DNA of 64,000 bases, taken from positions 11,056,463 to 11,120,462 of the forward strand of contig OZ037770.1 in NCBI GenBank assembly GCA_964035545.1, read 5' to 3'. The notes under the pieces were generated by a model. That model searched no databases. It had not been told where the DNA came from and worked only from the letters and a program-made list of their open reading frames with translations. Of the stretch, positions 3,001 to 60,321 are shown one piece after another. Position numbers and translations under genes: made by a program. The stretch is from Bugula neritina (Eukaryota; Animalia; Bryozoa). How positions within the stretch are numbered: the stretch's first letter is position 1; every line of letters starts with the position of its first letter.

Positions 3001-4578
3001 TGTATATACATTCTAGTATTCATCATATTTTAGTAGCTGTTACCATATTAGTAATAGGATTGTTACCTGAGAGCAAGATTTTTATCAAATTATAGCTACT
3101 TAATTTACAACTATACACACTAATTTATGTAAAAGTTAAAATTCTAACCATTATACCTAGAAATATAAAATAAAAATATGTTTGATAGACTTTCCTGCTC
3201 AAAGGTTTAACATACAAGGGTTTTGACATTCTGTTAATTCAATTTATTATAGATGTTTGATAATAAACCTATAAATAATTGTCAAAAAGGGTATATTGAG
3301 TAATGGGGAACAGCGTAAACAGTTTCCTAAGAGTCGAAGTTCATCACAAAGCAAATAGTTGAGTGTAAGAAATAAAACTATTTTCTTGATTTAAAGCTGG
3401 TGAACTTCAGGCAGCGACAACAAATGCAAACGATGTTATATATGCAGAAGAAGAACTACCAAAAATAAGGGCTCACGGCAAAAGCTTGTCAGGTAATTAT
3501 GATGTGTATGCTATATTTTTTAAGTAATTGACTAAATTCTAAAATCATAAAAGTATATCACCATTTGCAATATTGCTATTCGATATGGTTTTGGCACTAT
3601 ACCCTACTAACAATTTACATTGATATGACATTTTATAAACGTTAGAAAAAACGTTCATTAAATGTTTAAATGTTGATACATTTTTGTACTACATACAACG
3701 TTTAGGACAAAGGTTTATCACAAAATTTTTCACCAACGTTTCATAAACGCTGCGTTGCATAATGTTGCGTATATGTTTTTTATATACAACGTTAGTGAAA
3801 TGTTTAAATTTAAACGTATCTCTTTGTCTCACACAACGTTTAGGCAAAAACGTTTTCTGCAAACCATTTTACCAACGTTTCATAAACGAGTCATACAAAC
3901 GCTGCCATGACATTGCTTTAACAACTTTTATAATTTTGCAAAACAAGCATAATTTAGTTGTTGAAATGTAGAGGTTATTTAGCATTTCATAAATGTTATT
4001 ATAATGTTTTATAAACTCTATGCAGCTTTGCAAATTTAAGTTATTATAATTATCTGGCAAAGTTTACATAACCATGCATTGCTATATGAAAGTATCTATA
4101 GCAGTGTAATATATACAAGTGGGAGTTTTATATTGTGTGTTGATAACCATGGGAGAGTTTGAAGTTTTGATCACTTTCATTGACTTATGAGTATTATGAG
4201 TGTTGAAATACAGTATCAATAGTAGATTATAATATAATACAAATTAAGTTTATCAAATAATAGTTTGATTGGTGGCTAGCCATGCATTGTGTAGTTTTGT
4301 AACTTTTCTGGTAATAACTTCTATATATAAAATTACCTTGTTTTATTTGTTTTAAAAAATACACATGACATATATTAGAAAAGAGTATAAATTCAGAGCC
4401 AATTGGGTACAGTCACAAACAGAAAGATCCAATAGGTGAAAAAAGTCAAGCAGGTGTTTCAAGTTCTTTGATAGAAATGTTTTACAGAAAAAAAATAAGC
4501 AATAGAGTATATTATAGCTGTGTCGTGGCTACTAGATTCAGAATGGCTGTACTTGCATATCATATCAATGTAAAATAA
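1..4578 (+). CDS. TRIM-like protein copy A, 5'-truncated (B-box2, coiled coil, low-complexity tail). Exons <1-107, 648-844, 1224-1394, 1846-1954, 2099-2149, 2722-2787, 3397-3492, 4379-4578
   Basis: GT-AG exons join in frame: [25 protein letters not shown] (B-box2), [19 protein letters not shown] (coiled coil). The first five exons match copies B and C exon for exon. The last three exons are less certain. Confidence 0.75.
3600..4060. mobile_element. Degenerate non-autonomous insertion rich in AACGTT motifs with internal duplication
   Basis: Repeated acaacgtttagg...accaacgtttcataaacg blocks. Absent from the paralogous intron at ~12190-12210. Termini not resolved. Confidence 0.35.
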
Positions 4579-17800: not shown

Positions 17801-20800
17801 GGAATCATTTTACTTCATGTAGATATGGGGGATTCATCTTGAGAATGGCGTTCACTCCGTTAGGATTTGATATAAGTCTATTAGTTGCCAGTATGTGTCC
17901 AATGTAAGGTAGTTCATCTTGAAGGAAGCGGAGTTTTTTCTTGTTCAGTTTCAGTCCTATCTGTCGGGCATGTTTGAAGAGTGCTTGAATGTTTCTATCA
18001 TGCTCTTTCCTTGTCTTTCCAAAATTGTGGATGTTATCTGCAGCAATATTTATGCCATCTAGACCAGCAAGATTTTTTGTGAGCCTTCTGAGAAATTCCT
18101 CCTCGGCCCTGATGCAATTCTAAAGGGTAGCCTTAGGTATTTATATTTTCCTATGGGAGTCCAGATAGTTGTCAAGTCTGTAGATTCTTCAGCTAGAAAA
18201 ATTTGATAGACACCTTTATTGGCATCACACAAGGGAAAAACTTGGCACCGTTCAGTTGTGGTAGAACATCTTCTAATATTGGCATGACAGCTTGGTTTCA
18301 TTTGATTGCTTGATTAAAGTTTTGTGGATCTATGCAGATGCCTAATTTTCTATTAGGTATGTGAAATGGCTGTAGATGGCTTATCCAGTCTGTAGGTCTT
18401 TCTACTTTGGTGATAATATGGCACTGTTCCAGTTCAAAAATAGCATTGATGAGGTCTGATATCATTGGCAAAGTCACCTTCTGCGGTTGCACTTCCGCTG
18501 GTATAGCTTCAGCTTTAAGTTCTATCTTATATTCCTGCTCAAATTTTCAATGTCCGATAAATATGTCATCAAAGTCAATGAGTATAGTTTGAAGGTCTGA
18601 GTCAGTAGTGGCAAAGTTTACATTTTTACTTTCGGTGTTAGGCAGTTGTAAGAGATCCAAATGCAAACATGACTTCCATGACAGCAAGCTGTGTTGAGTG
18701 ATTTCTACAACTAGGAATCTCAAGGTAGTGTAATTTTCTTGCTTGTTTTGTATATGTATGGGTGTCCACCGTGGTGGTGCACACTTGCTCTGGTCATGCA
18801 AACTTAGTACAGTATCAGCCGGTATCGGTATCAGTATCAGTAAAGTATTACAGGACGCACCAGTGTCAAGTTGCAATTCAATGTCATAAACAGTGTCTCC
18901 TGCTTAGCAGTGAGCATGGCTAATAATTTGCAGTCCCATACTGAATTGGCAATAGTACTTACATGCTGAGAGCCACTGTCTGAAGAGTAGTTCCAGGTGA
19001 ATTGATTAGCTGTTTCAATTGAGACCCAATAATGATGCTTGTGTGACTTGCAGTGTGACGCAAAATAGTTAAACTTCATGCAATGGTTGCACTGTTTTCC
19101 ATATGTTGGGCAAGCTCGAGGAGGGTGGTTGTTTCCACAGTTTCCACATTTAGAATCGCCAAGTGAACTTTTGCCATTGGTCTGCGAGTGCACAAAAGCT
19201 ATTCTTTGTGTTTATCACGAGTGTAATCTGGGTGGTATTGATAAGTCGGAAGTCTAATTCTATGCTTTACCAAGTTTACTTGTTTGAGTCTACAGGTGTT
19301 ATCATTAGTCTAAAGTTGCTTTTATACCTTCACGATTTTCGTTCAGAAATTCAATTTGGCCGGGTCAAAATTTCTCAGAGTTGCATTGCATTGTAAAAGC
19401 CACTCATAAAAATTTTTGTACTGTGATAACCTAATCGGCCGTTTTCAAAATAGGAGTAATAACTCCTTGTAAACATCGTTATTTAGTTATAATTATACAG
19501 TCTACGCCTTCTCAATTATCGCTTTTGTGCTGTCCACTTCACTGATTCACGACGTTTACAAAAGGCATTAAATAGTTATTATGCGAGTCAAATTTCAATT
19601 TTAGAAAGTGAGCATCCGCATCAATATGATTTCAATGAGTTTCAGTGTGACTATAAAGGGGTACCCGGACAAGTATTATTAGCTTAAACTCGGTATTTTT
19701 TTCAGCAGAGGTATAAACCCAACTTAAGTTTTGTAGTTAATTGCTGATGCCTCTTCCCGTCTACAGAGTTCAATTGTTTTGTCAACGTCAGAGCTAGTCA
19801 AGTTAAACAGTTTTTTTCTAATTATGTCACTTTCAATCCCTAGTATAAGTGTTTGTAGTATTAGTGTAATCGGAAGAATGTCTTTCAAGTAACATAGTCC
19901 TGCAATAATATGTAGTTCGGTCAAAAATTTGTTAATAGTTCTATTCCCTTGCCTACAAGTCAGTAATGAGTGAGTCTTAGCCACCAAATTTAGTCTTGGT
20001 TTGAAGTATCCGTCGAGTTGCTTCACCACTTTGTCGTAGTCAGCCTTGTCATTGTCGTCCGTCTAGTTGAATAATTCATATTTTTGGTTGCCTCGGCAAC
20101 CGGCAGTTCATAGTAGGTATGCAGTCTTCACTTTGATTTTGTTTTCGACGTTATCTTTTGCGGTGGCAGCCAGAAAAAGTTCGAAATCTTGTTTATAATT
20201 TCCTCAGGTAGATTTGGTCCATCTGCTAATGGTTTTGGTGCTAGTGATTGCTCCATGTTGTCTAAGTGCCTTTTAAAGAATGATTAAACTCCAGGCACCA
20301 TGTTTTGTGTAAGTTATGTTATTTTGTTGTAGCTATTGTGAAAGAGAGTAAACGTGCTCAAGTTAGTTGATTAATGGAAGAGGGCCAAACCGTGTTATTT
20401 CTACATTATACAATACAATTTAATACTAAAATTATAATATAAGTGAAACGTTTGATATTATTATTGTGGTGGCTCGTGAAGCTACCAGCAGCACAACAGG
20501 CAGGGTCGCGTAATTGACCCGGAACAATGGATAGCCAATTAGCGTGTTTAATAGTTAGCAGCAATTATAGTTTTCCCGCTGCTAACTCAGTCGAAGTTAG
20601 AGTGCTGAATAGTCTAGATGTGTAAATTGTCAGATGTATTTGTATCGTTTTGTAATGTATCATTGTGTTTAAAATATATACTCGTTCACTCGACTTATCC
20701 TGGTGCAGTTCTATAGCAAGTAATTAGACTCTCTGGATTGCATATCAACCCTAATTCTGGAAAACATAACAGTGGTGGCAGCAGTGGGATAGTGCATCCA

Positions 20801-23800
20801 AGATGGAGACTGAAAATGCTGGAACGCAACCACCGGCAGTAGAAGGTGAGCGTAGAGACAATGCTGTAGAGACAATGCCTGTTAACCATGTAGTAGAAGA
20901 GCGAAGGGTTCCGCGAGAACTAACTGAAGACCGCTACCGGTTAAAGGCGCCCACCTTCACGGGCGAAGAGGAGGTGGAACAATTTAGCCAAGAGTTTAGC
21001 GACGTAATGGACGTCGCCCAGTGGCCCCCTAGGGTGGCCCTGCTGAAGCTTAGAATGGCATTGATGGACAAAGCCAAGCCTTATGGGCTGGGCGTAGACA
21101 TTAATAATATCTTTGCTTCTCTGCGGGCCCGCTTCGGCCTCTCTGCTACAGATGCCAGGGCCCGATTGCAGAGGTTGCGGCGTGATCCCCGCACCCCGCT
21201 GCAGGAGCACGCCGCCCTGATCATGAAGCTGGCACAGATCGCGTACAGCGACTTGCCCCCAGTCAACCGCGAGAGGTATACCCTCGACGCTTTCATAGCA
21301 TCTGTCGACGATTTGGGTCTCCACCACCAGTTTTTAGCTAAGGGAGTCACCACCGTTGAAGATGCTCTGACTGAGGAGGAAGCTTACCTCCTAGCTAATC
21401 AAATGCATAAAAGTCGCGAGAGCTCCCGTCAAGTGGAGGTAGACCGCGCGAACACGGCCGCGGGACAAGAGGAGGAAACCTCCGCCACAGCTGCCGTGTC
21501 CCAGTTAGCGACAGCATCGAAAGTCACTCAACTGACAGACATGCTGGCCAAACTGATAGCAACACTGACACCCCAAACCCCAGTAAGTACCGCCGCTGAG
21601 CCCGTACGGCCACCGGCGCCGCCACAGGGAGAAACAGTCAGTTTTTGCTGGGAATGCGGAAATCAAGGACATTTCCGCCGATACTGTCCCTTCCTAATTC
21701 CGGCGTTAAACTACCGCGGCCCGCAGATGTTCCCACCTCCTGCGGGCCGACGATGAAACCTCCAGGGAAGAAGAAACGCAGGTCACCCAGACGGGTACCG
21801 CGTACTGGTAACCAACAGTGGCAACAGCCACGAGGGACCAGCAAGGGGCTCCGCCCCGCCGCTACCTTTTCCGTGCCCCTTCACAACAGATTCACAGGGC
21901 TACAAGCCCAAGAATCTGGATGGGAGCCCACAAAGGTAGCCGGGAATCTAGCCTCGGCACCCCCGAGGCCTACTTACCACCGTTCCAAGAGACCTCCTTC
22001 GCGACCCAAAGCGAGGGAGGTACCCCCTGCGAGAGTAAGGCCTGAAGGGAGAGTTCAGGTGCAGCCCCATGGGAACAGCTATTTCTTGCCCGGTAAACTG
22101 GAAGGCAAAGCTGTTACTTTCCTCATTGATTCGGGCTGTACCACAAACCTCTTAAGCCGCCAACTCTTTGACACCCTCAGTGCTAGGGTCAGGGGCGAGA
22201 TGGAATCATACGAGGGGGAGTATGGCACCCTAGCTGACGGGTCGTGCCTTCCCTTCTATGGTATAATTGAGCTGACGGGACGAGTCCGTGATCAAACGAT
22301 CCAAGAGACGTTCATCGTCAGTCAGCTCAAGGAGGACGCCATCCTCGGGATGCCATTCCTAAAACGGCACGGATGTCACATCGATTTTAGTAAATCTGCG
22401 ATGATGATGTCCGGGCGAGAACTCGCCTGCGTCGACAAGTTCGGCCGCCCTTTAGTGGGAGGTGTGCAGGTGGTACGCAACCGTACCATACCAGGCCGCT
22501 CCCGGGCTACCATTCACTGCAGGGTGAACAATAGCCGGATCTCTGGACTCGGGGTAGTTGAAGGCGCGCACGAAAAGATCCAACTTGCCAGCAGTCTGAA
22601 TCAGCTGACTGAGCAAGGGGAGATCTTAGTGCAGTGCGTCAACCCCTTTACCGAGTCTGTCAAGCTTCCGGCTGGGTCGATGCTGGGCCGTTTTCACTCT
22701 GTTCAGGAGGAGGACGTAGGCCCGTCGCTGGGTGATGCGACGGAGGCATTCCCTCGGTGCCCTACTCCAGGGCGAGGGACAGTCCCAGCACATCTCCGGG
22801 AGTTGTATGACACAGCCTGTAGCGGCTGCGCGAGTAACAAAGAACGCCAAGCTATGGCGAAGTTACTACGCAACTACGGGGATGTGTTCAGCAGCGGAGA
22901 TCATGACGTGGGACTGACTGGAATTGTCAGACACGAAATACCGCTGACTGCAGGGACAGTCCCTGTCCGGCAGCCCACACGTAGGCTGGGGCCGGAGAAA
23001 GAGAAGGAGGTTAGCCGACAAGTACGGGATCTTCTGGACCGGGGACTGATAGAGCCCGCCCATAGTGCGTGGAGCTCGCCGGTTGTACTGGTCCGGAAGA
23101 AAGACGGCAGTTGGCGGTTCCGTGTGGATTACCGCAAACTCAATAGCGTAACCATACAGGACGCCTACCCTCTACCTCGTATTGACGAGTCGTTGGACGC
23201 CCTAGCCGGCAGCAAGTACTTCAGTACGTTAGACTTGCTGAGTGGCTATTGGCAAGTCCCTCTGAGTCCCGACGCCCAGGAGAAGGCGGCGTTTATCACA
23301 CGGGACGGTTTGTGGAAGTGGAAGGTGTTGCCTTTCGGGTTGACCTCCGCCCCAGCCACCTTCCAAAGGCTGATGGAGCAAGTCCTCAGCGGGCTCCATT
23401 GGAAGACACTGCTGATCTACCTCGATGATGTCATCGTGATCTCCACAGACTTCGAGACGCATGTCAGTCGTCTGCAGGAGGTCTTTGAGAGACTCCGAGG
23501 TGCCGGTCTTAAGCTCAAACCTTCTAAGTGCGCTCTATTGCAGCCAGAGGTTAAGTACCTGGGGCACGTTGTCGGTCGAAACGGCGTGGCAACGGATCCC
23601 GAAAAGGTACGGGCGGTAGAAGACTGGGTCACCCCCCAAGACTTGACCGGACTCCGGGCTTTCTTGGGGCTGGTAGGGTATTACAGGCAATACATACCAG
23701 ACTTTGCGGGCATAGCACAGCCGTTAAATCGGCTCACCGCAAAGGGAGTGACGTGGCAGTGGACCCCAGTCGAACAAGGAGCGTTCGACCGCCTCAAGGG

Positions 23801-26800
23801 CTGCCTACTAACGGCGCCCATCTTGGCCTACCCAGACCCCACTCTGGAGTACATCCTCGACACTGACGCCAGTGACCAAAATGTTGGCGCTGTGCTGTCT
23901 CAAGTGCAGGAAGGCCGAGAAGTAGTAGTAGCCTACTACAGCAAGTCTCTCTCACCCACTGAACGAAATTACTGCACTACCCGCAAGGAGCTGCTGGCAG
24001 TAATCAAGTCAGTGAAGCACTTCAGACCATACCTATATGGCAGGAAGTTCCGGCTGCGTACGGATCATGCCTCGCTGATCTGGTTGTGCAAGAGAGCAGA
24101 GCCCTCTAGTCAGGTCGCCTGGTGGCTCGAAATCCTAGCTGAATTCTCATACCGGATCGAACATCGACCGGGCAAGAGACACAGCAATGCGGATGGTTTG
24201 AGTCGCCGACCTGATGGAGGTTGCAAACAGTGTCTTAACATCGAGAGGAGGGATGGAGGTCCCCCGCGATGCGAGTTGGAGACGCTGGCTCACCACAGAG
24301 CACCGTTTGACTGGGACCAGGGTCAACTCAGACAGGAGGTTGATGAGTCCCCGGAGGTTGTACAAAACCTCCGCGCCAACCCTGTACTGGCCGATAATGT
24401 CCGAGAACTGAAGAAGCTCCAAGAAAAGCTGCCTGGAGTCGTGGCAGACATATATCGGGCCAAAAGGGAAGGGCGACGACCCAGCGAGGAACGCATACGA
24501 CAGGGATGCGCCGAGTTCCGGCTATACTGTCAGCGTTGGGACTCGCTGCGGATCGGGCAGGATGGGTTACTAACCATCTCTCTAGCCGCCAGCGGCAGAC
24601 ACCCGGAAAGGAAGAGGGTAGTCTGCCCCACTGCCATCCGCCGTGAGTTGATTTGGGATACTCACAAACAGGCCCACGCAGGGGTCAAGAGAGTGATATC
24701 CAAATTACGACTCCGGTGGTATTGGCCACAAATGGAGCGTGACGTCCGACTCAGAGTCAAACAGTGTGAGATCTGCCAGGCCAGTAAGCATAGCCGTCCC
24801 CCTGGTGAAGCAGGACGGCGGAGGTTATATGCTGGAAGGCCCTGGCAAGTAGTCGCTGTAGACCTGGTCGGACCCATGCCCCTGACCCCCAGAGGCAATA
24901 GTTGGATCTTAGTACTAACCGACCACTTTACTAGGTGGGCGGATGCTCTGGCTATCCCAGATGCGTCAGCCCCAACAGTGGCCAGGGCACTAGACCAACA
25001 TGTATTCTGTTATTTTGGTCTCCCCGAACAGATAAACTCTGATCAAGGCGCTCAATTCCAGTCTCAACTGATGAGCGACCTTTGCCACCTCTGGGGAGTA
25101 AATCAGAGCCGGACCACCCCCTACCACCCTCAAGGTAACGGGGTGGTGGAGCGCAACAACCGGATGTTAGGTAATGCGCTCCGGAGTCTCCTCCTTGGAC
25201 GCGGCCAAGAGGAATGGGATACGGTGTTGCCGCAAGTCATGCGTGCATACCGTAGCACCCCACACACCAGTACTGGTGAAACCCCAAACCTCTTGATGCT
25301 CAGGAGAGAGACTCGTGTCCCTGACCATCTTACCTACCACGTTTCAGAGCAAGACAACTCGGTTCACGAGTATGCCAGTGAACTAGTGGAACGGATGAAG
25401 GCCGCACACGATATACTGCGCGAACAGCAGTGGAAGGTGCGGCACGAAGATTCCGAGGAACCACCTCTCTACCAAACGGGAGATAAGGTGTGGATGGTCA
25501 ATTACCGTAGGCGTCGCGGGCAGGCTGACAAACTAAAGCCTAAGTTCGTAGGACCCTACGTGATCGTCGAGGCTATGCCCAATCATACATACAAGATTGA
25601 GCGCTCAGGACAGGTGTCTATCCAGAATGAGTCTCGCTTGAAACCGTATTGGGCTAGCCCCGACGCAGTGGGAGAAGCCCCCCCGTTGTTGGAGCCCAGG
25701 AGGCAGACAACAACACGCGGGCGACGGCGGCATGGACCTGAATACGAAGTGGTCATACCGCGGGAAGAAAACTTGGTGAGAGAGGAGCGACAGCTTTTGC
25801 CAAGCAAATGTGGGAGTTGTCAACACCACGAAAATATCAACTTTTGTATCGGCGGAAATAGAAACAAAATTCATCCGCCGGGTGCACAAAGTCTTAATCA
25901 CGCACCCCAACCACGTTGCTCGATCTTTTCATACGCTGATGCAGTCAGGAGTAGACGTGTTTCTAAGCAGTAGTTCAAACCATTTCACAAATTCAGTATG
26001 TCTTACGACAACAGATCGTGGGGTGAGTTAACTATATCTTAATATGAAAACTAGATTGCATCGCTCAGCTCCGACTCACTGAGTCAATCGAGCTGGAGAT
26101 AGGTTAGTGAAATACCGTAGTAAGAACTCAGTTTGACTTAGAGATTTTTATAATCTCATTGCAATACGTGTTCTATCTGACTATTCACTACCATAAATCT
26201 CTACGAGGTAACTGAATGAGGAGTTGCCAGGCTATTCAAGCCAACAACACGGCAGTGTACTGTATTAACACTGTTGAAACTTTTTCAGATTACACTCGAC
26301 CCGCTACAACCAGGGTACGGGATAGAGCACTTCCCGCTCCGCATCCTGAGGAGTATGCCAATGGTGACCGGTCCGAGCCACTGCGCCGCCGTTGGCGGTG
26401 GGTGTCTCCAGAAACAGAGGAGGAAATAGAAACGGCCTGGGGGTCCAGAGGACGGACGCGATGCCAGATTTGTGGCGAAGAATGTGCCTCTCACCGCTCC
26501 TTGAAGCTACATGTCAACGCCCATCTCTTACTCACATTCTGCCCCTGCGGATACAATGATGTCTACCCCTACCCCGTCACCAGACATCGAGCGACAGGCT
26601 GTTTCTCTGGAGAGAATTACGTGGTGGATGCCAAGCTCTATCCAGAATTCCTCACTCTGATACGACCCCTAGTAAAGAAGGCAATGCTGTTAGCCGTCCT
26701 GACCTCGGATTTCCAACGCGTATTAGACTATGCCAGACAACAATCCCCATTGGTATCTGACCGCCCTCAGATTGCGTACACCCCCGAAGAGTTTGCCTAT

Positions 26801-29800
26801 CCAGAAGAAGGAGAGGTCTCCCCTATCCCGATGAAGAGACGAACCAGGTCTCCCAGCCCCCCTCTGCGCCGCAGACGGACACCGTCCCCAGACCCTGCTT
26901 GCCTGGCCACAGTGGAGGAACGCCTCCTCCGACTACAAGAAGAATTTACCCAGTTAGCACCGGATCTGCTTAATACTACGACGGGGCTCTTCCAACTAAA
27001 AGGATCAGTAGGCCGGATTAAGCGGAAACTACGTACATGCCAAGCCAAACACCGGCGTGCCCAACATTGACTCTGGTTCTGCTACCCGGAATAATCCACA
27101 ACTTCGTCCTCTTGGGAGACCCAAGAATGTCATGTAAATGCTTGACTGCTCGACAGGCCGACTCCTTGCCCAATACTACAGCTACACAGGATAGTTAAGG
27201 GCATCCTCACTAAGAATATCATAAATTTCTCTCAAAATGTAGTTCAGGTTCTTGAATAATATTGCTCTGCGGGTGGCATGCGTGTTGCCTACTTGTAATT
27301 GTTTAGCCTAAGATTAAACTACAACCAATAAGCAGCAACCTTCATTAGGGCTGCGTAATCTATCAACATTCCATTATGAGTGCTACATAAACAAAGTACA
27401 AAGCGAGCTATTCATTATAGCCTGCCAGCTAGCTAGCCTGTAATTATTATATAGGCGCCAATATCTTCTCATCCCTACGTGCTCAGTAAAGCGTGAAGTG
27501 CTGCGCGCTGCTAGTTTCTTATGAGAAAATATGGCATTTTCAGTGTATAAATCACCAATTTATGAGCAATCTAGCAGAGGTATTGAAAAAAGAAAAAAAG
27601 TTACACTGGAGAAATATCTCAGGATTCCAGCAGTGCAATTTTTATTCAGATATCATGCTTTGCTGCTGAGATATTTTACTGGTACTGAAAAGTCAGCTTT
27701 TCAGGCAAAATTGGCCAAAATTCGGCAGTTTTTTGTCTATAACTTCGCAAAAAAAATGAAAATTGAAATTTCCAAAAAACTTACACTGGAGAAAAAGAAA
27801 ATCTATAACATAGTTTTTAAATTTTGACTCTAGCACAATTAGGTGAGATTTTATTTTACTGGTACTGAATTCTTATATGATTACAATGCAAACCTCAGCA
27901 AGGCAGTTGCAGCTAAAAGGTTGCCCTTAACTATCCTGTGTAGCCGGTATTCCTCCTCTATAGCTGGCCAATTGCATGTAACTTGCTGTTATAATGACTC
28001 TGTCTGTTATTATGTATCTTTATATGTGTTATGTATTATCTTTTGGTCTACTGATGTATGTGGTTAATGATGAACGTTTTTTATATCAGAAAGAGGGCTT
28101 TCTGCTGGTGGGGGCGGTGTGGTGGCTCGTGGAGCTACCAGCAGCACAACAGGCAGGGTCGCGTAATTGACCCGGAACAATGGATAGCCAATTAGCGTGT
28201 TTAATAGTTAGCAGCAATTATAGTTTTCCCGCTGCTAACTCAGTCGAAGTTAGAGTGCTGAATAGTCTAGATGTGTAAATTGTCAGATGTATTTGTATCG
28301 TTTTGTAATGTATCATTGTGTTTAAAATATATACTCGTTCACTCGACTTATCCTGGTGCAGTTCTATAGCAAGTAATTAGACTCTCTGGATTGCATATCA
28401 ACCCTAATTCTGGAAAACATAACATTATTATGCACAAAAGTAGTAAATTAATAAAATAATGTAGTATTTTATAGAGTTACCCCCTTAATACACATTCTTA
28501 TAATTATGCACGTTAAATAGCAATCCCTAGCCCCTTTAATTTAGGTTCAATTTTGCTTAGGCATTGTAAATCGATCTTAACTGAAATTTGGCTTGCCAGC
28601 TAGCCGACATTCCGATTTTCGGACTCCGACATTCCGAATATGGGCACACCAAAACCTATCATTCCGCATTTCGGTTGATTGTCGGTTGAAAGTTGTAGAC
28701 TTCCTTTGTTTGACCAGTATAAAAGAAGGCCCATTTTGAGCTCCTAGTCAGTTGAAGACAGGAGCTCATACTGGAAGGAACCACTCTTACCAATGAAAGC
28801 TTACTTTCCACATACTACAAAAACTCTCTTATCTCTTACCACTTTCAAGGAGTTATGTTCTCTGCCTGATTGCATTCAATAACTCACAAGTTACTACAAT
28901 AACTCTACAAAGAAAGGAATTCACATACACTGGCTTTCCATGTATCGATCTCAGATCGATCTTGCTGAGATCGATCCATGGAAAGACGCCAAAGATCGAT
29001 CTCAGTCGTTCTGAGCTGGTCGGTCTGTAGAGCTCGAACTCAGATCGATCTCAAGGCAATAAGACCATGGAAAGACGAAAGATCGATCTGAGAAGTAGAA
29101 AAAGTCGGTTCGCTAAAATGTCGTCCGCTAATAAAAATTATAATTTATTGTTAATTACTAAGCAAATTACTTAATAATTACTATGGCCACATTTTCAGAT
29201 CCCAAAACTTTGACTTTCAGTACTATGATTAAAAAAACTCAATTATATAAAATTATAGAAGGTAGAAGGTACAAAAAATAGGAGCATTTAAATTGAATTT
29301 AAATGGCTAGTAAAACTTACTTCGATTAGTTATTTGCTGCTATTGCCCGTGATTAATACCAAACAGTTATGTAACATGACAGGTGGTTAAGCTGTTTGGT
29401 CTTTCAATAATTACTCATTAAAATGTTATTGCAACTCAATCATTAGCACAATAATGTTGATCTTTAAACATTCATAAAGATATTGATTTCGAAATATTAG
29501 ATTATTTTTTCATTTAAATTACCTAATAGGTTGATGAAATATATATTGAACATTGTTTTAAAATTTTGCTAGCAAAATAAAGTATACTGTTAAAATGAAT
29601 TAAAAAAAATAATTTTACATAAAAATATAGCTTTTTATTCAAGCTTAACACAGCAAAGTATAGAAATAACTTGTTGAATCATTTAGTTAGACAATGAAAT
29701 GATGTTGAAAATCATTCCTATAGACGAATTTCTAGTAGAATAAACAATAGAAAGATTTTGCATTCAAACTTTGGCAAAGAAACAAGCAAAACATATATTT

Positions 29801-32800
29801 GAAATTATGATCAATTTGTTACAGAAACATGAGGAGATGCATGATGATCACCAAACTCTCACAATACAAGAATATAGAGCTAATGCTAACAAGATGAAAG
29901 TTAGACTCTGTGATAAACATGAAGATCAGCCCTACAGTGTTGGATGTAGAGATTGTCTGAGTCTCTGTTGTGTGAAATGTCTGTCTGCTTTGAAGAACTG
30001 TACCAGCACCAGTGAGTAGATACTATAATTATGTATCAGCATTGGTGATTGTTTAGCAATTATTCACTGACACTAGTTGTTGGTCAAGAATTATGTACCA
30101 ACACATGTGATTTGCTGACAGTTACATACTAACACTAGTGATTGGGTAAAAACTATTTATCAGCACTGGTGATTGGTTCGTTGTTATATTTTATGTGGAG
30201 TGGTTAAAACCTGGTAAATCTACACATAGTTCTAGAATTGTTGAGGTAGTTGCAGTAATGGAAGAATTAAAAAAATAAGCTGGTGCTTTAGACTAGAAAT
30301 GTATCAAAAAAAGTTATGTTCTCTCGAGAATTTCAACCGCGTCCCAAACCAAACTTAGGCTATCTCAATTTCTCCACTACTGCTCCTAAATGGAAATTCA
30401 ATAAAACCATCAATTGATTGAGCAAACCCAGCTTATCATTCGAATATTGTGTTTATTCAATGCATATAGCAATTACAGAATATTAGTTTACTTAATGGTA
30501 TGGGACTCAGATGAACTTGTAGGTGTCAACCACCAGCTGTGCTCTTTGGAAGAACTGACGTCTGAGTTGAAGCAAGACGTTGATGCACTGACTTCTAAAC
30601 TAAACATCAAAGAGGGAGAATGGGCCTCTCTTAGCAAGGCTGCTAGTATGTTGTTATCTGACTTCATTTCAGAGACAGAGAGGTTCGTTGGTTGTCTGCA
30701 TAAGACAAGAGATGAGCAGGTAAATATATATCTCAGGCTGGCAAGCTTCTTTGATTATCAACGTGATATATTAACAATACAATTTATTGTTTTTATTATT
30801 TTTTTGTTTAGATGGTTTAAGAACTCTTATCTACTAAAAACCCGCAAAAGAGTGAAACAATAAAAAGCCTTTATTTGAAAATAGAATAGAGAAAGTTGAA
30901 AAATGACAATAATAACACCTCACGTAGACTGTTGAATAAACCATTGTTTTTGCTGCTCACCTTAACGTAAGAAATAATTTAAATTTAATACCATGTTTAA
31001 TCAAACTTGTTGGTTTATTTTTTTCAAGATTCAAGAACTTACTTTAGGATATAAGAATTTAGAGGCAGAGTTTGTGAAGCAGCGACAGACAATTCAGGCA
31101 AAGATAAGCCAGTTTATAGAAGTAGATGTGAACGAAGAGCGTTTAAATTTTTTCATGCAAAAGTCAAGAATTGCAGCTAAGCTTCGTCAAAGTCATCAAG
31201 TATGTATCTGCTTTTCTAAATGCTGTATAAGTAACAAATACTACCGTAGTTATAGGAGGATCATTCAGTAATTACTGGTTACAATAAATATAAGCGTTAT
31301 AATTATAGGCTTTACTAGTGTTAATCAAACACCATGATGCTTTTTTATCATACTTTTCATTATTTGAGCATTGCTTCAATAAAATTTTCAAAGAAAAAAT
31401 TATTTTATTAAAATGTCTTTTGGTTTTGTTAAACGTTTATTTGTGGGGGAAATTTTCCTTCATATGTGCTTTATCAACACATAGTTCACACTTGATCAAA
31501 ATAAAGCACTATTTGCATTTTATCCTTATGCACTTACTACATATTTTACTAAACTGCTTAGAAATTGTACAGTTTTGTTTTTTAAAAAGGTTGAGATTGT
31601 GAATGACTACAGAGAGACGAAGCAGCATATAAATCACCTTCTTAACAAAGAGACACCTGTACTACAGCTGAGAAAAATACCAGAGCTGAGAACTACAGGT
31701 GAGCAAAATATTAATTTCTGATTCAAAGTGAATAGCTTCATTAACATCTTATTCCGTAAGAAAGTTCCTGATCAAATAGTTAATTTCTCATTGATCAAAC
31801 TTTTCAGGTATTACTAGAAATTTGGAAATGGAAATCACAGATCAAGACACAAAAAATGGTAAATTTTCTTTCCCTTGTCTTTCCATGCAAGTAACTACGT
31901 GTATATATATAAATGTTACAAATTCTGAGTATAACATATACTTATAGAATTACCAGGTTTTTCCTAATGATTATACAAGAATGTTCATAAATATTTTAGA
32001 CTAATCAAAGATATGGGTCATTGTTCATTATTACTGTTTTTATTAGTCATGTTAACTACTGCCCAGCAATGTAAACAATTAAGGTGTTGCGCAATAATTG
32101 CGAAATAACCATGAAAGTTCCAATGTTTTGCTTTGTTTGGGTTTTCTATCTTTGAATAGTATTGGCATGTGGGGAATTTTTTCTACTAGAATTTTCTATA
32201 CTGGAATGCTTGAGAATGTTCTAAAGTTTTTGTTTACTATAAATGCTGAGGCAGTTGTGTTTACTTAAATCAGTTCATTTTCATAAGTTCATCTGTGCAT
32301 ATCTTACTGGAGAAACAAATTCTACTTATATTCACAACTCTATTTACTCTCAACTGGATTAGCAAGCTGTATGCTACCTGTCTATACACTTCTGAATACC
32401 AGACTTTTCGAACTCGTCACACTGCTACCAAAGTTTTGTGACAATAAAAAATACTTGCTAGCTAATTGGTGCATTAGTTAGCATAAGGTTTGTTTAGAAC
32501 CCAAAACATTGTATCACATTGCTAATTTCCAGTTATTTTTATTAAATCAGTTTTTTTTTAAATTTCAGAGTTTTGACATTCGACAAGAATTTTCTGATCA
32601 ACAAATTATTTTATTTTATTTCATAATCATCTGAGCAAATATGAAAATTTAGTCATTATGTTTTTAGCGTGTTGTTTTGATACTAAAACTAAACTTTACA
32701 TTGAAATAAAATCATCAAATTCTGAATAGCCATTAGCTAAAAGCAGATATGAGGATTTCCTGATCTTTTAAAAAAATTGTTTTCAGCAATAACTTTCTTA

Positions 32801-34293: not shown

Positions 34294-34436
34294 ACATTTT
34301 ATCTTATGACTGTGTGCTGAGCACACAAAACTAGCAGTAATATTTAGATGTTTCAAATGAAATTTGTATCGTGCAATGCTTTTTATTACTCTACTCTGCC
34401 CTGTATTGAGCCCTTTGTAGTGCTAAACCATAAAAC

Positions 34437-34506
<70 letters not shown>

Positions 34507-34649
34507 GTTTTATGGTTTAGCACTACAAAGGGCTCAATGCAGGGCAGAGCAGAGTGATAAAAAGCATTGCACGATACAAATTTCATTTGAAACATCTAAA
34601 TATTACTGCTAGTTTTGTGTGCTCAGCACACAGTCATCAGATAAAATGT
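34294..34649. repeat. 356-bp near-perfect palindrome centred on (TA)n
   Basis: ~145-bp arms are reverse complements with a few mismatches around (TA)n at 34439-34505. Confidence 0.95.
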
Positions 34650-34797: not shown

Positions 34798-37344
34798 TGT
34801 AGGTGGTGCCCTTCCGACTTCTAGCTGTGGACTGATTCTATACTGGCAAGCTTACCCTGTTATAGTCTAGATATCGGGCACCCCAAATTATAAAATATTC
34901 CATCAAAACTTCGGGCATCCCAAACTTCAGGACCTCCGAATCAGACACCCCGGACTTTGGGATGCATGAACTTTGGCCAAATAATCGCATTCACATGACA
35001 AAAAATAAAAATATTTTGATGGTATATGTAAAAGAAAGCTCACTCTAACTCTATTATAAATAACAATAAAAGTAATTCCAAAGGTATTTACATAAAAGAA
35101 AGATAATCCCACAATCTATTACATTCTCTCTCCAACAAAAAGTACCCCCTTTCTGATAACAACAATTCAGTACTCCCCAAAAAGAAAGAAACAAACAATA
35201 CATATATGAATAAAATGCATGAACTCTATTTCGGACACCTAGATTTTCAAAAATTGTAAATATGCGCCGTTAATATAATACATATAAAAACATTTACCCC
35301 GGTTAAGTACATTGAGGCACGACATTGGTGACTACGAACGGTGGCTTTCCACCATCCGCTCCACGCAGCATACCCACCTCCTTAGCATCTTTAACTTCTG
35401 AGTACATCGGCTCATCTGTTGCCATAAGAGCCAAATTTCTGCTTTTGGGAGGCTATCTGTCCCATGTGGTGTTCCATTTGCTTGTAGTGTCTGGGAGGGG
35501 GTTAGTCACCGCTCGTCTGTCCTTCGACTGGTTGGGTCATCTCCGACCTTGGTCAGCACGACCCAAAGTGGCAGGGTGACTGTTGACCAAATGGCTGGGT
35601 ATGGCGACTGATGTTTTTCTTTCGAGTCGTTCCTCATTAGCCGACATGTGGGGAACCCAATGGAGGGAGCTTCCCGTTTCTGGAGATCTTCCGCATGTGG
35701 TAGTACCAGGTCGCAGAACTCACTGAAGGTGGCGGCATACACGACAGATGTTCTGCTCGGTGTGGCAGCGGGCAATGCGCTGATGCCTTATCTCAAAGTC
35801 CTGCTGATAGGAAAATTCTCCACACAGGTAGAACATGTTTAAAAAATGTTTGAAGGCATATACCCTAAGCCGCCGGGTGTTCACGTTGGCCCATAACTGG
35901 CGGATTTTGCAATGGGCCGCGGGCGTTTAACGGCTTCCTCTCATTGCGAGGACTATTCCTGTGACCATGTCCTTTTGCGCCACAACCCCAGCATGAAGTG
36001 GGCCATGCTCCGGCAAGAGCCAGCCTTGACCTTGTCCATCGATCAGCGGGCTTCCCATGTTGGGAATGTTTTAGCTCCGCCATCAATTACTTTACCATCT
36101 GTCATTGCAGAGACTGGGACATTGATTAGACATGTTGCCGTCGAAATGAAAGCAGGTGCCGCATCCCACGTTTTCACTTCTACCTGATGAGTGTTCACCT
36201 TTAATATGTGCATTCTATGGCTTGGTAATATACCTGGTCATGTCTGAGCAACAGTTTGCTATATACAATCTGTGCCAGCCGTGCCACTGTCTCCATATGC
36301 TCCTGCAAAGAGGTATTAGGCTTATGCCTCAGTCTTCACAGGTGAGCTCTGTCATCACTGGCATTACTGTTGGTGATGCCAAAGCAGGAGAATCTCAATG
36401 CAACAAAGGTACTACTGACATTGGCTTTTAGGTCATAGGGTTTGGCCCGTACGATCAAACATAGCTGTAAGTCAAGGAGTGTTACACGAGGAGGCCATTT
36501 AGAAATGGCTGCAACATTGATAAACTTTATGATAAACTGCTCTATGTCTTCATCTTCATTAAAGACAAGACCTTTAAGGCAGTACCTGTCACCAGGAGAT
36601 GCCTAGTCAGTCTCGTTGTTACAGAGGGGAGGTGGGACAAGAGCTTCAGCCGCCTCTCATTTGTCCACCGCGGGATCCACAGCTTCCTCAACCCCCTGGG
36701 GGTCCAATTTCTACCACACATCTTTCTTTAGCCACTGCTATGTTGTTGCTCCATTTCACTGGAGGAGCATTGGTCCCAACAATTATATCCCACGACTGTC
36801 ACCACTGTTGTAATTTTGTGCAGTGACTAAATTACTAAGCGTAAGTTTTGTGGAACCAATGCTAGAACATAGCTCTTTATTGCGAGTGAGACAGCAGAAT
36901 GACTTAGGTACATCAATCAATAATTATATTTACAGATAATTAGTACAAGAAAAGATATTAGTTATAAAAATCAACAGTGAACTATAGAACTACACATAAG
37001 TAAAGTTTCTATCCGAGTGTGTCAGTCCATGTGAATCATCCTGTTTATATAGCAAAGCTTTGTTCCTATCGGTTTGTGTCTTCCGGGTCTGCTGCGAGTC
37101 TCAATTCCGGCAGCAGTGACCGCTATTTTGCTGCGGAGAGGGTGCAAAATCCTGTCGGTAGAATCATTCAGTGCACATGTGTGCGCGTCATGTGTTATGA
37201 TGTAAAAATAGAAACAGTATTTCTTACGAAGTGGTAGTGAGCCTCTCGCTGAGCTGTAATAACAGTCATGTATTATTAATCAAGCAGATGGTAAATGTCA
37301 CGGCAATGTTGGGGGGTAGCATGATGTATGTCACGCCGACTACA
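34798..37344 (-). mobile_element. Degenerate pol-less Gypsy remnant related to the young element (LTR 36806-37344, PBS 36787-36804, gag remnant, ORF3 remnant, PPT, LTR-like 34798-35123)
   Basis: PBS TGGTGACAGTCGTGGGAT; gag DRYCLKGLVFNEDEDIEQF...KWPPRVTLL...AKPY matches young gag [19 protein letters not shown]...QWPPRVALL...AKPY; CWGCGAKGH knuckle; PPT GGAGAGAGAA before TGTAATAG. Confidence 0.85.
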
Positions 37345-38414: not shown

Positions 38415-41400
38415 ATGGCAGCTGCTGCAAGTTCAGATACAATGTCGAGGAAATGTGGGTTCTGCCTTCAAGTAGATGATGATTTGGTAGATCCTAAGCA
38501 ACTTCCCTGTTCTCATATACACTGTGGTCAGTGTCTCAAAGAGGCCTTTAGTATTGCAAGAATACTGAGGTGTCCCCATTGCAGGTAACAAACAGTTTGT
38601 CAAATGATATTTATCAAAAAAGCTTTGAGTGGCATGTGGTTTGATGAAATATGATATCTTATAATTCTTTCTCAACGTTTAAATGCATTGATTCTAATTT
38701 TTTGTTTAAATAAAGATGTAAGTCAATAGATTGATTGGTTTTAACTGTTAGACTGTTTTGGCACCTGTATATCTATGTCGACTTGTGTTTGAATATTTTT
38801 GGCTGCTGCTTTTGTAGTACCGGTCCAGTGCAAGGAACTTTTTTTCAGCTCAAGCATATTTTCTTTGTAATTTAAAATAAAATGTAAACTAATTGTTTTT
38901 GACATATAATATACTTGGGAAAAAAAATTACATTTATTCAATTAAATTGTAACTGATGAAACTATACAAATTATTATTTCAGAGTTTTGTAAAACTTCAA
39001 TAAGCCAAGCTAGAGTCAATAAAAAATATTTTAATACACAATATTTCAAACTTATTACATTATAATACAATACTTTTTATAAAGGTTTAATCTTTGACAA
39101 AGATGGTTTTAAAAAGTGGTACTGTTTTCCCAACTGTTCCTTACAAATATATGCATTGCACTGGTTTTGTCGCTTTAAATCATCATTTCAGCCTTAAAAT
39201 GCTGTTTGTAGTCAAATATTTGAAGGAGATGTGAAAAATTTGCCCTCCGCTAAAGAGCCTACAGAAGAATCTTTACAAATAATATGCGATCCTTGTTATA
39301 AGAATAGAGGAGAACGTATTGCAGCTGTTATTTGTTGTTCCTCGTGCAAAAAGAACTACTGCCTTTCACACAAGAAGGTGTGATATCATTTATACATACT
39401 ACCAAGTGGTTAAGTTGTTTAGGTTTTTGATAATCACTCACTAAACTGTTATTTCAACTCGACCAGCGGCGCAAAAAATTAAGTTTTATGCATTTAAACA
39501 GAAACTTAATTCAAAACATAATGTCACTTCTTTGCATAATTATAAAATTTAATAAATAGCTTCAAATTAAATAAACTGAATATTGACCATTTTTGTAAAA
39601 ATTTGGCAGCAAATCAAAACACACTAAAAAATTTTGCTTCATGTAAATAGTTTTTTATTAAAATTTAAATAAAAGAAGGATAGAAATGTGGTGTTGAAAA
39701 ACTAATATAGAAGATATCAATGAGTCATCAAAACCAAGTTTTGGTAGCGAAAGCAATGGAATTATTTTGGCTAGTAAAACATAATGAGTTGTTCAATATA
39801 TTATATTGAAATTATATTTTAATTTGTTACAGAAACATAAAGAGATGCTTGGTGACCATGAAACACTGACAATACAAGAATATAGAGCAAATGCTAACAA
39901 GATGAAAGTTAGATTCTGTGATAAACATAAAGATCAGCCTTACAGTGTTGGATGTAGAGATTGTCTGAGTCTCTGTTGTGTAAAATGTCTGTCTGGTTTG
40001 AAAAACTGTACCACGGGTGAGTGGATCAAAATTACACATAGGCATTAGTAATTGTTTAATAATAATATAGTAGCACTAGTGATTGGATAACAGAGAGCGT
40101 AGAGAATTTCAGGTACCCATTATTGTTTCCCCATGTAGCGTGTGCCTCTGTCATGCTACTTTGTATACCCCATTGAATACCATTGCCCTCTCGTAAATTA
40201 CTATGCAAATCCTTTGTAACACATGCCTGACTTAGATTACATACAAAATTAATCTGGTTGGCCAACAATAATATGGGTGATCACAGCATCTATACCCCCT
40301 GTTCACACATTGCCGTACGGTACGCCGTAACAGCAAATTTTCGCCATCTTTGTTAACATCAGGGCTGAATCGTACTTTGGTATACACTGCGGCATTGATC
40401 AAGCAGTGCTTGATTCAAAAAATCGCAGCAGGCCCCCATTGGGTAGAGTTGATCTGGTACTAAAATTTAAAAAACATTTTCACTAGTTTATTTTAATCGC
40501 TTATTGTCAATTTAAATTAACTAATTCAAAATTTTTTAAAGATCAAAAATCTTTTTCCGGCTTTTGTAAAATTGAACTCAGCTTAAAATTTAACTTTTTC
40601 CTAATTAGAAAAGCACGTAAACCAAAAACTTAAAAATCATTTGGACAGCTAAAATATTTATTATTCAAATTAGTTCGCACAATTATTTTGAAGCACAATT
40701 AAATTTAAAAGAGAATTCTTCTTTGAATTTATTTAAATGGTGCGACAAATTTGTGAATAATATCCAAATGCATTCAAATTACCGCAGACAATAATGAACC
40801 TCATTTTGATTGGTCACAACTCAACGTCATGCGTTGTACTTTATGTCAATGTGTGAACGCCTGTTAACAAAACGTAACAGCGGCGCCATTCTGTGTGTGT
40901 TATTGCGGTTCACGGTATGGCAATGTGTGAACAGGAAGATAGATGGTCACTCAAATTAATTAGAGCTACTATGATACTGCATAGTTGCCGCAGTGACAAT
41001 AATCCGGCAGGCCAATCACACTGCCTCGGCGAAACAGTCACACTTTGGTGCTACTCACATACAGTCTTAAATCATATTGTATTACTAGTTATTATATTTT
41101 TCTCATTAACTGACAGACTTGGGCTTTTTTTGTGCTGCAAGTCACCAATACACTGAATCAAAATGTTGAAGATTTTGAAGCACTTTTAGCTAGTAACTAC
41201 TAACAGTCAATAGATTAGTAAATACTGAGCCCTTGAGAAGGTTTGAAGTAGTACACACAGTATATAAATTGCACAAGACTGGTACATATACAGAGGTTAC
41301 CACTTATTAACTGCCATTGTTTCCTTATAACTGTTAGGTGCTTCTCACAAACTCCTTTCCATAGAGGAGTTACTTGCTGAGTTGATGAAAGACATCAACA

Positions 41401-58593: not shown

Positions 58594-60321
58594 CAGGGAT
58601 GTAGTGGCAAAAATGTTCTAGGCCATACTCTCAGGCCAGGGGGCCGCCCAGGCCCCCGGCGGGGTCCGGGGCAGCGCCCCGGCCGCCGAAGCCCTCAGAG
58701 CTCTTCTGATGCAAATTTATGCAATTTAAAGCCATTGTGAATTCTAATTCTTCTGAAAAAATCTGTGTTTAAATGTGCACCTCACTATTATTTTCATACA
58801 ATAGCAGCTACATGACGACTGGGCATTGCTGCAAACTATATAAATATTCAGTATTGTCCCATACTTGTTGACTGTAGTTTTAAATGTAAAGTCTTACTCA
58901 ACTGCAGTTAGGTTTGTTCTGACATGCACCAATTACAAACTGTACAGAAAAATTGCTGAAGATCTCAAAAAGATGGAAGGATAGAGGCAGGTAACAAGTG
59001 CTCTCCAAATGCAACCTGATTGTTTTATTAATAACTAATAGACTGACGTGCCCAGAAAAAGAATAATAGATCAGAAGAGAGGCAGATTGCAAATCAGAAA
59101 ATGTGTGTTTGTTATTTATAAAGAGCAATTTGAATTGATAACTCATTGGCAAGCAGAAATTGGTTAAAAACCTACTTGGAGTTTATTGGAGTACTAGTCT
59201 AATCCATAAGGAGATACCACCACACCTTCTAACACACAATAAAGCACACCCAAGAAAAGTATGTTAACTTGGTTTTAAAATAAAACCCCTGAACTTTCAC
59301 TAGACACATCAAGGAAACATACCCCAAATGAAAAAAATTGACAGGTTTAATACGTGTTAACCTAGAAGATGATTAAATATAAAGCCAGATGTTAGTTAGT
59401 ACAATCAAACATAAAAGGTTACTTATGGTGGTGTACAGTTTGCAAAACCTTATTGCATTGATAATTAACATGCAATAACGCTAGGTTTTTGAGCAAAATG
59501 TGGACATTATAGTACCTGTAGACCTCAGTGATAAATTTTTGGTATAACCTCTCCTACACAACTGGTACTGTTTCTTGAAGACATTTTGATTTTATTTCTG
59601 GATTTCATGTTGGTTTTTTAAAATTCTATTGCTTATTGACAAAATACAAGTCCACACAAGATAGATGAGGGCAACCTTCTAGCTGTCACTGCCTAATTGT
59701 GCTAGAATAAAAATTTAAAAACTATGTTGTAGATCTTCCTGTTTCTCAGAGCACCTGCTTTTTCGAGTTTTCAATATTTTTTTGCAAAGTTATAGGCAAA
59801 ACACTACTCATTTTGGCCAATTTTATCTGAAAGTTTATTTTTCAAAATGTGCCAAATATCTCAGCAGGAAAGTATGGTATTGGAATAGAACAAACGCTGT
59901 TGGAAACCTGAGAAATTTATGCATAGCAAATTTTTTGATTCCTTTCAACAGCCTTCATAGATTTTCTACAAATTAGTGATTTACACACTGGAATGAAATA
60001 TTTTTTCCTTAGCAATCACCAATGCACAGCACTTCGCGCTTCAGTGAACACCTAAAGATGAGAAAACGGAATGTTGATAGCTCTCATTATTCATGGTGTA
60101 ATCTCAGTCTAAACAATCACAAGTAGGCAACACGCATGCCACCCACATAGCATCAACATAACAAGAACTTAAACTAGATTGTGAGCGAAGATGCCCCAAC
60201 TATCCTGTGCACTAATCATCTTTCAAAAATATTATGCCCATACGGGCGTATGGCCTAGAACAGTCTATTTTCTTCTAGGCCATACGGCGTATGGGACCGT
60301 ATGGGTACCACTACATCCCTG
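58594..60321. mobile_element. Non-autonomous hAT-type DNA transposon
   Basis: Perfect 14-bp TIR CAGGGATGTAGTGG / CCACTACATCCCTG; 8-bp TSD GGTATACT on both sides; subterminal CCATAC/GTATGG repeats. Confidence 0.92.
59655..60209 (-). mobile_element. Older, deleted copy of the CAC..GTG element nested in the hAT element
   Basis: Reverse-complement homology to 27185-27940 (GGGTGGCATGCGTGTTGCCTACTTGT); flanked by CA/CA. Confidence 0.8.

Follow-up and report, generated by a model that had tools for sequence, protein, structure and literature searches.

Animal LTR retrotransposons are usually viewed as carrying gag and pol, with or without env. The env of Drosophila gypsy is expressed by splicing a short Gag leader to an open reading frame (ORF) behind pol, and its product is a membrane glycoprotein. 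Retroviral accessory genes such as foamy-virus Tas/Bel1 and the Tat and Rev genes are found past the structural genes and ahead of the 3' LTR and are read from subgenomic mRNA, and chromoviruses carry an extra chromatin-type module, the chromodomain, at the integrase C-terminus. For C. elegans Cer1, the available text of one study describes CERV, a nuclear protein of 517 aa from five exons with a C4-type finger, an M-domain ring, a G-protein-like domain and a leucine zipper; it is required for export of genomic RNA (gRNA), with no homology reported there outside nematodes (PMC10309623). According to the part of the source available, the ORF3s of the bdelloid elements Vesta and Juno are family-specific and of GDSL esterase, DEDDy exonuclease, transmembrane or coiled-coil type, and non-env ORF3s of this kind typically come from spliced messages (PMC5408684).

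We analyzed a window of 64,000 nucleotides (the whole stretch of DNA) from the bryozoan Bugula neritina, in which a gypsy-type element carries a third gene, here ORF3, behind pol. ORF3 resembles Drosophila gypsy env in its probable leader splice but is without a clear transmembrane segment; it resembles Tas/Bel1 and Tat/Rev in gene position and a probable subgenomic mRNA, but these are retroviral and no homology to ORF3 was found. As far as the available description of CERV goes, ORF3 is like it as an accessory protein, other than env, in a gypsy-type element, with a probable spliced mRNA sharing the Gag N-terminus, a Cys-rich finger with a zipper, and a predicted nuclear location. That same description sets CERV apart from ORF3, which sits behind pol and has a C2H2 and C2HC finger pair and a C-terminal coil. 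The CERV set of a C4 finger, a ring in the M-domain and a G-like domain does not fit ORF3, whose ligand pattern differs and whose predicted 274 aa are too short for a G-like domain. Vesta and Juno likewise have a non-envelope gene in the env position, but the types described in the available text are other than zinc finger, and the word 'zinc' is absent from the text on bdelloid elements in PMC5408684. The term is also absent from the available text of annelid and mollusc surveys (PMC8556966, PMC6238403), and the part of PMC6431247 available adds nothing further. Literature searches turned up no account of the ORF3 family; supplements, Repbase and GyDB may list such ORFs.

The element carrying ORF3 is a young Ty3/gypsy LTR retrotransposon, with 306 of 307 positions identical between its LTRs:

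20465..20771, + strand: 5' LTR, 307 bp, TG...CA, a single mismatch to the 3' LTR
20773..20790, + strand: primer-binding site, tRNA-Leu-like
20803..21756, + strand: gag, CCHC knuckle at the C-terminal end
21600..25803, + strand: pol, shifted by -1 from the gag frame; encodes protease, RT, RNase H and integrase with an SH3-like tail
28102..28117, + strand: polypurine-tract-like stretch directly 5' of the 3' LTR
28118..28424, + strand: 3' LTR, paired with the 5' LTR

Protease-RT-RNase H-integrase order, paired TG..CA LTRs, a target duplication, a primer-binding site (20773..20790, which we take to be for tRNA-Leu) and a polypurine tract together place it in Ty3/gypsy. TTAT is duplicated on either side, where AT-rich flanks make duplication lengths of 4-7 bp indistinguishable. 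The gag knuckle scores under the cut-off for Pfam zf-CCHC (E 0.13), and gag has 129 homologues. The element was found in only 4 sequencing runs, always as contigs (share at most 0.08 in three runs). One RNA-library contig spans 26437-26655 of ORF3, which is no proof of expression.

ORF3 is open from stop to stop over 26216-27070, in a separate frame behind the pol stop and so not in frame at the integrase C-terminus:

26289..27070, + strand: ORF3 main exon, 259 full codons
26378..26761, + strand: compact zinc domain, made up of a W-V-S helix, a C2H2 finger, a C2HC finger and a helical extension
26837..26890, + strand: Arg/Ser-Pro patch, candidate nuclear localization signal, subfamily-specific
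26900..27050, + strand: coiled coil with basic C-terminal end (approximate limits), the best-conserved part in the close family

An earlier note on this DNA had described an intact ORF after pol with CQIC-x12-H-x3-H, a second Cys/His cluster and a C-terminal heptad helix, and all three are present where it placed them. The RSPSP motif that it also listed occurs in the window ORF3 but is shared by just 2 of the 39 rows of the close family, so it is no family trait. Its view that ORF3 is not env agrees with our results: Pfam scans return no env family, the modeled part is a zinc domain, and there is no clear transmembrane segment (top 19-residue hydropathy window 1.51, under the usual transmembrane level; above 1.6 in 3 of 39 family rows).

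The zinc domain matches no Pfam family; for zf-C2H2_4, ORF3 falls under the cut-off (E 0.14) and P0261 above it. Finger 1 keeps the pattern Cx2C-x12-Hx3H across the family, as in classical C2H2 fingers. Modeling gave the domain pLDDT 94.5 and pTM 0.86, and near-invariant ligands together with this model make two zinc sites highly likely. The full-length model is poor (pLDDT 55.6), and a dimer prediction scored 0.02, which is no answer and was set aside. Profile comparison links the domain to SALL3 (E 3e-6), and by sequence and fold its best neighbors are tandem C2H2 pairs, for many of which a structure on DNA is available. The fold matches themselves are weak (Kaiso at Z 3.7, with rmsd 3.5 across 58 residues; SALL4 at Z 3.6, with rmsd 3.1 across 51), the best Z of 3.7 being equaled by an unrelated membrane protein; Foldseek against PDB and viral libraries returned no match to the domain at E<=0.001, and a protein atlas gave only leads below 0.9, mostly C2H2 clusters. 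In the helix of finger 1 a basic R-R/S-L-R/K is conserved and position 6 is hydrophobic (L/V/I), the linker is F/Y-x3-F without TGEKP, and the second finger reads CxC..H..C. The domain is therefore no Krueppel-type TGEKP array with polar helix positions -1, 3 and 6, and finger 1 would read DNA unlike a classical Krueppel finger; it may bind RNA or protein. An SR-like role for ORF3 was considered and dropped, a basic cluster followed by S/T-P occurring in just 7 of 36 distant rows.

Three stretches of the element bear on how ORF3 is expressed:

20803..20845, + strand: gag leader exon, 14 codons plus 1 nt, ending at the element's strongest donor
25997..26022, + strand: candidate mini-exon, CAG/T-ATG at its start and a phase-1 donor at its end
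26262..26288, + strand: splice acceptor TTTTTCAG with branch-point-like TTAAC, ending at 26288

Both phase-1 donors named by the earlier note were confirmed in position and in phase with the acceptor and ORF3. The gag donor AAG/GTGAGC, at 20845 and 43 nt as counted from the ATG of gag, is the sole 8/9 match among the element's 17 GT sites scoring at least 7/9, and the mini-exon donor GGG/GTGAGT (26022, 25 nt from the ATG at 25998) is one among 16 sites at 7/9. Of 56 sibling Gag leaders, 41 have E-G-E at the gag donor position, and the signature [FL]-[SL]-[DG] stands at the acceptor in 17/17 unspliced homologue rows that extend that far (38 rows in total). Relatives' indels flank the candidate mini-exon, with none inside it among the 12 of 18 indel rows listed. 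Independent support for the Gag-leader splice proposed earlier comes from a database protein, P0028, in which a sibling Gag leader is fused to ORF3 precisely at the predicted donor and acceptor: its first 14 residues are the leader of sibling Gag P0132, followed by the expected joined-codon Asp and then ORF3. P0028, the one natural junction among all matches, is indirect evidence for the sharing of a Gag N-terminus that is common to CERV-like and env-like expression. From this junction and the conserved signals, the splice 20845>26289 very probably joins the Gag leader to ORF3, giving a product of 274 aa. Neither splice was matched among the 15 of 244 contig joints listed, nor among all 6 joints of a second sibling-contig comparison.

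Two further features affect the window copy:

25803..25804, no strand: internal junction, sibling contigs continuing with different DNA on either side
27181..27944, no strand: MITE-like insertion in the 3' UTR, inverted ends of 27 nt

Since sibling contigs differ on both sides of 25803 (7 contigs per side in X4, 1 per side in X2), we infer that this copy lost DNA there by internal deletion, and its final ~56 pol-frame codons and the sequence upstream of the mini-exon are probably products of that event. Siblings skip the MITE-like insertion (loose ends at 27184), and a partial second copy lies near 59.7-60.2 kb of the window.

ORF3 is a conserved element gene. Among 1382 candidates, 73 were close homologues (identity 43-94%), and a wider search (50% library) gave 120 matches. 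In an 88-row alignment the eight zinc-ligand columns are kept in 83, 86, 85, 84, 88, 87, 81 and 69 rows. The earlier note had named a dN/dS near 1 in siblings as a sign against it; we found 0.09-0.37 (6 pairs from four copies of one related family, other than the window's own), while the integrase control, a single pair without synonymous changes, is uninformative. A C-terminal coiled coil usually comes after the zinc domain, and a heptad coil lies within the last 90 residues of 14 of 37 distant proteins, versus 0 of 37 shuffles. In distant members the part upstream of the fingers is net acidic (37 of 43) and the finger pair net basic (41 of 43), with an acidic-hydrophobic 12-mer upstream of the fingers in 20 of 43, a distribution of charge like that of transcription factors; in the window ORF3 the N-terminus has no long acidic part (net charge of -1 for residues 1-50). 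Scans for the ORF3 locus gave 0 of 180 metagenome pattern matches, 0 of 21 viral and 0 of 56 genome, and a scan for integrase gave 0 of 3 viral contigs. A search for longer ORF3 forms in the length window 1128-3220 aa gave 0 of 7984, a weak test that P0320 escaped.

The domain is also present in gene models of bryozoans (Watersipora XP_067940963/4 and XP_067944745; Bugula KAF6040922/3), three of which have a further N-terminal motif in common, noticed by eye. Both points would suit a captured host zinc-finger gene carried as a passenger without a role for the element. Yet such named models appear only at about 31% identity or less over the domain, versus 43-94% for the close matches; families that differ in their linkers retain the ligands and the coil; dN/dS lies below 0.4; and bryozoan rows are scattered at several places among element-linked rows in a domain tree, with weak support. 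We therefore consider a passenger very improbable. None of the 73 nearest matches is a named host gene, so that recent capture, which the earlier note had raised against its own reading, is largely refuted; an ancient host origin may apply.

A wider gypsy clade shares the module, which occurs in three arrangements: spliced, as a free ORF and as a Pol extension. The domain sits behind integrase in 7 of 19 related loci, where it is either a free ORF or an in-frame extension of Pol, nine related loci ending too early to show the downstream region. It is a separate ORF in the window family and in L004/006/008/015, is found in its free form with an ATG of its own, and is fused at the Pol C-terminus in three families (L002, L010/L012 and P0320). 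A further Cys/His tandem at the Pol C-terminal position of L009 (Prob 5.9%, E 0.006) was excluded from the counts, and L016 and L017 (integrase identity 36% and 42%) show no domain match in 6.1 and 2.7 kb downstream. In the window element, the 7 loci and P0320 the domain lies behind integrase on the gag-pol strand; in a second element of the window it lies behind gag:

35338..36805, - strand: second, decayed element of another subfamily, with a primer-binding site and a remnant of gag; pol is missing, and the same zinc domain with its coil follows on the strand of gag

The earlier 'spliced ORF3' is supported in the window family but gives way elsewhere to free and fused forms. The integrase tree (18 rows, without L017-L019) is a polytomy and gives no order of fused, free and spliced states.

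ORF3 is a third gene that a clade of gypsy LTR retrotransposons has conserved, in the env position behind integrase. We propose that in the window family a 14-codon Gag leader would be spliced to the acceptor at 26288, giving a protein whose predicted zinc-finger pair precedes a coiled coil. This product probably binds nucleic acid in the nucleus and oligomerizes via its coil. At the weakest step, its target would be the element's own DNA and its output transcription, activated or de-silenced in the manner of foamy-virus Tas. The layout of acidic N-terminus, basic fingers and coil favors such a nuclear DNA-binding transactivator or anti-silencer of its own element, the prediction that we tentatively prefer, at slightly under an even chance, over RNA export and integration targeting.

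A spliced product might instead bind unspliced genomic RNA and let it exit the nucleus, as do CERV and Rev. The strong donor and acceptor mean that genomic RNA retains an intron, the 3' part of this intron is conserved among siblings and could contain a response element, and close-family proteins end in an Arg-rich tail; the precedent is CERV itself, spliced, sharing gag exons and needed for gRNA export in the available account of Cer1 (PMC10309623). Since the spliced form is only one of three arrangements, a purely Rev-like role is less probable. In the Pol-fused L002 and L010, which keep the domain, searches saw no strong gag donor; an export factor made from unspliced RNA only could not start the cycle, whereas a trans-acting regulator is allowed. 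Export also leaves the acidic N-termini of distant members unexplained, the CERV architecture differs (517 aa, C4 finger, G-like domain), and an Rfam scan of the element gave zero matches. We judge export unlikely.

The Pol-fused families recall chromoviruses in having a module at the integrase C-terminus (L002, L010/L012, P0320), but with a zinc-finger pair and coil instead of a chromodomain, and with the module free or spliced in other families; Pfam scans found no chromo family. These three fusions fit an integration-targeting or nuclear-import module equally well and count against the transactivator. Here the domain would act as a chromodomain-like part, its free forms using the coil to join integrase or the particle. 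The tandem of L009 occupies the same place, the window copy lies in an AT-rich site, and SALL4-type pairs have been solved on AT-rich DNA. Against this, the window family and L004/006/008/015 have a separate ORF, and the fused ORFs of L002 and L010 have an internal ATG past the end of the integrase tail (ATGs picked by eye), from which the module may be expressed apart. Targeting seems to us unlikely, slightly more so than export.

In the literature searched, only CERV has been tested as a regulatory accessory protein of an animal LTR element. If our preferred reading, a transactivator or anti-silencer, is true, ORF3 would be a second, apparently unrelated and clade-wide regulator, and the strategy of complex retroviruses, in which a subgenomic mRNA yields a small nuclear regulator, would have re-arisen outside retroviruses. 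We speculate, as a rather doubtful extension, that this invertebrate gypsy clade comprises 'complex' retrotransposons encoding their own transcription factor, which bryozoan hosts have domesticated as genes; the bryozoan gene models offer a possible case of domestication. The three arrangements of one module form a natural series for the origin of accessory genes, and the compact, well-modeled domain would give a handle on silencing escape, RNA export and insertion-site choice in animal elements.

ORF3 lies behind pol, in the env position, of a gypsy element whose pol encodes protease, RT, RNase H and integrase. This element and its neighbors comprise the following features:

20465-28424, + strand: gypsy LTR retrotransposon, with LTRs, a short target duplication, PBS and purine tract
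20803-21756, + strand: gag, followed by pol in the -1 frame
27181-27944, no strand assigned: MITE-like insertion, absent from sibling contigs
35338-36805, - strand: second, decayed element of another subfamily, with PBS, a gag remnant, then zinc domain and coil, and without pol

The LTR pair (307 bp) carries one mismatch, and GC content is 51-58% in the element versus approximately 31% in the host, an animal and, judging by repeats, exons and named homologues, probably an invertebrate. In sibling contigs, both flanks of position 25803 are replaced by other DNA. The window copy is young yet damaged. The MITE-like repeat occupies the 3' UTR and has 27-nt inverted ends, with a related partial copy at 59654-60189. 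In the ORF list, decayed gag, protease and RT pieces of a different LTR element lie directly upstream of the insertion (17805-20062, - strand). Elsewhere in the window are a perfect palindrome with 178-nt arms and a TA microsatellite at its center (34294-34649) and a dispersed duplicate host exon (3-121, 29744-30025 and 39802-40033), whose Cys/His pattern we take to be B-box-like and which suggests that host genes of one family lie here in tandem.

ORF3 is a genuine gene. The motifs and splice signals that an earlier note read from the sequence are all present where it placed them, including an Arg/Ser-Pro patch, which is restricted to 2 of 39 close rows. The conservation in relatives that it called for is borne out by 73 homologues among 1382 candidates (43-94% identity), none of which carries a name. 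Across close relatives, conservation averages 0.87 in the coil, 0.79 in the fingers and 0.49 in the linker. The dN/dS ratio is 0.09-0.37 across six pairs among four close copies of a single related family, the window's own family lying outside this DNA-level comparison. A Pfam scan of ORF3 returned no family at or above cut-off; a profile search yielded 120 representatives of a wider family with the pattern W-[VI]-[ST]...Cx2C-x12-Hx3H...CxC...H...C, its eight zinc ligands each kept in 69-88 of 88 rows. That ORF3 is a passenger gene captured from the host, an outcome the earlier note had flagged, appears very unlikely from these comparisons: its best matches are not named host genes, and bryozoan gene models have the domain at no more than about 31% identity. 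Among bryozoan zinc-domain proteins, P0260, P0316 and P0317, from two genera, have an extra N-terminal motif in common by eye, and two Bugula genes with the domain have adjacent locus tags. Two domain copies each are present in P0312, P0316 and P0261.

Both proposed donors, in gag (20845) and in a candidate mini-exon (26022), are in phase with ORF3, as predicted. The gag donor is the single top scorer of 17 GT sites scoring at least 7/9. Read at the protein level, E-G-E at this donor is kept in 41 of 56 sibling Gag leaders, even where the remaining leader diverges, and all 17 unspliced homologue rows that reach the acceptor (38 rows in total) show [FL]-[SL]-[DG], a translated pyrimidine-AG acceptor. 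The gag-leader splice itself is supported by database protein P0028, in which 14 residues identical to the start of sibling Gag P0132 are followed by Asp and ORF3 sequence, with the junction exactly at the predicted sites; it is the only such junction protein among all matches. Because its contig (5320 nt) exceeds the expected spliced RNA, the source is likely a retro-copied spliced message. A chance deletion striking both donor and acceptor is improbable. Among the joints listed for contigs of four runs, neither splice was matched.

In the mini-exon (25997-26022), the ATG is preceded by a plausible acceptor, and none of the indels listed for relatives falls inside this stretch. However, the surrounding intron is also conserved, so that a genuine exon here is doubtful. 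By arithmetic, joining the leader (43 nt) and mini-exon (26 nt) to ORF3 would break its frame, and translation would meet a stop at 26427-26429; inclusion could possibly act as an on/off cassette. YAG|TA occurs 1-11 nt before the ATG opening the zinc-domain region in four of four cases (L002:5665, L010:5602, L004:3246 and window 25998), a hint only, as these ATGs were picked by eye.

The 128-residue zinc domain (26378-26761) was modeled with a pLDDT of 94.5, and Foldseek found no match at E<=0.001 in PDB and viral libraries. In a wide structural search, residues 19-79 matched tandem C2H2 pairs, among them those of Kaiso and SALL4 (best Z 3.7), tied with unrelated helical proteins, and by profile finger 1 resembles SALL3 (E 3e-6). 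On this basis, the modeled domain is a finger pair within a larger fold, for which these searches gave no clear counterpart. The basic helix of finger 1 is conserved, and helix position 6 is hydrophobic. Distant members have an acidic upstream region (37/43) and basic fingers (41/43), and 14 of 37 have the terminal heptad coil versus 0/37 shuffles.

An integrase scan recovered 19 related loci (36-62% identity), to which we applied the domain HMM. The anticipated position held wherever the domain was found (seven loci, always behind integrase on the pol strand), but its presence is not universal: L016 and L017 lack it by HMM, the match in L009 is doubtful, and nine loci end too early to judge. 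Four of the seven (L004, L006, L008 and L015) form one family with a free ORF, its own ATG visible in the three with a whole frame. In the other three, from two families (L002, L010 and L012), the Pol frame ends in zinc domain and coil, followed by a terminal repeat in L002 and a purine tract in L010; P0320, 59% identical to the window integrase, likewise joins RNase H, integrase and zinc domain in one protein. Neither the integrase nor the domain tree orders the fused, free and spliced states. The gag remnant of the second window element is approximately 49% identical to sibling Gags, and this element ties a distant ORF3 subfamily to gag within the same host. L013, of the same family as L009, has a motif inside pol (2447-3640), spotted by eye, that we presume to be dUTPase-like.

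These arrangements bear on function. Integration targeting would account for the fused but not for the free forms, and we consider it unlikely. RNA export resembling that by CERV, the spliced accessory protein of C. elegans Cer1, has an experimentally tested precedent (PMC10309623) and would suit the strong splice sites of the window family; it fits poorly with the fused families, in which a search for donors turned up no strong one in gag, and seems only slightly less improbable. Non-env ORF3s (PMC5408684) and one spliced nuclear regulator (PMC10309623) are already in print. In the literature covered, which excluded supplements and repeat databases, we found no account of this zinc-finger and coil family. 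The acidic arm, basic fingers and terminal coil would together constitute a transcription-factor layout, and a trans-acting regulator would be compatible with all three gene arrangements. From this layout and tolerance we tentatively propose, at somewhat less than even chances, that ORF3 may drive self-activation or anti-silencing of the element.
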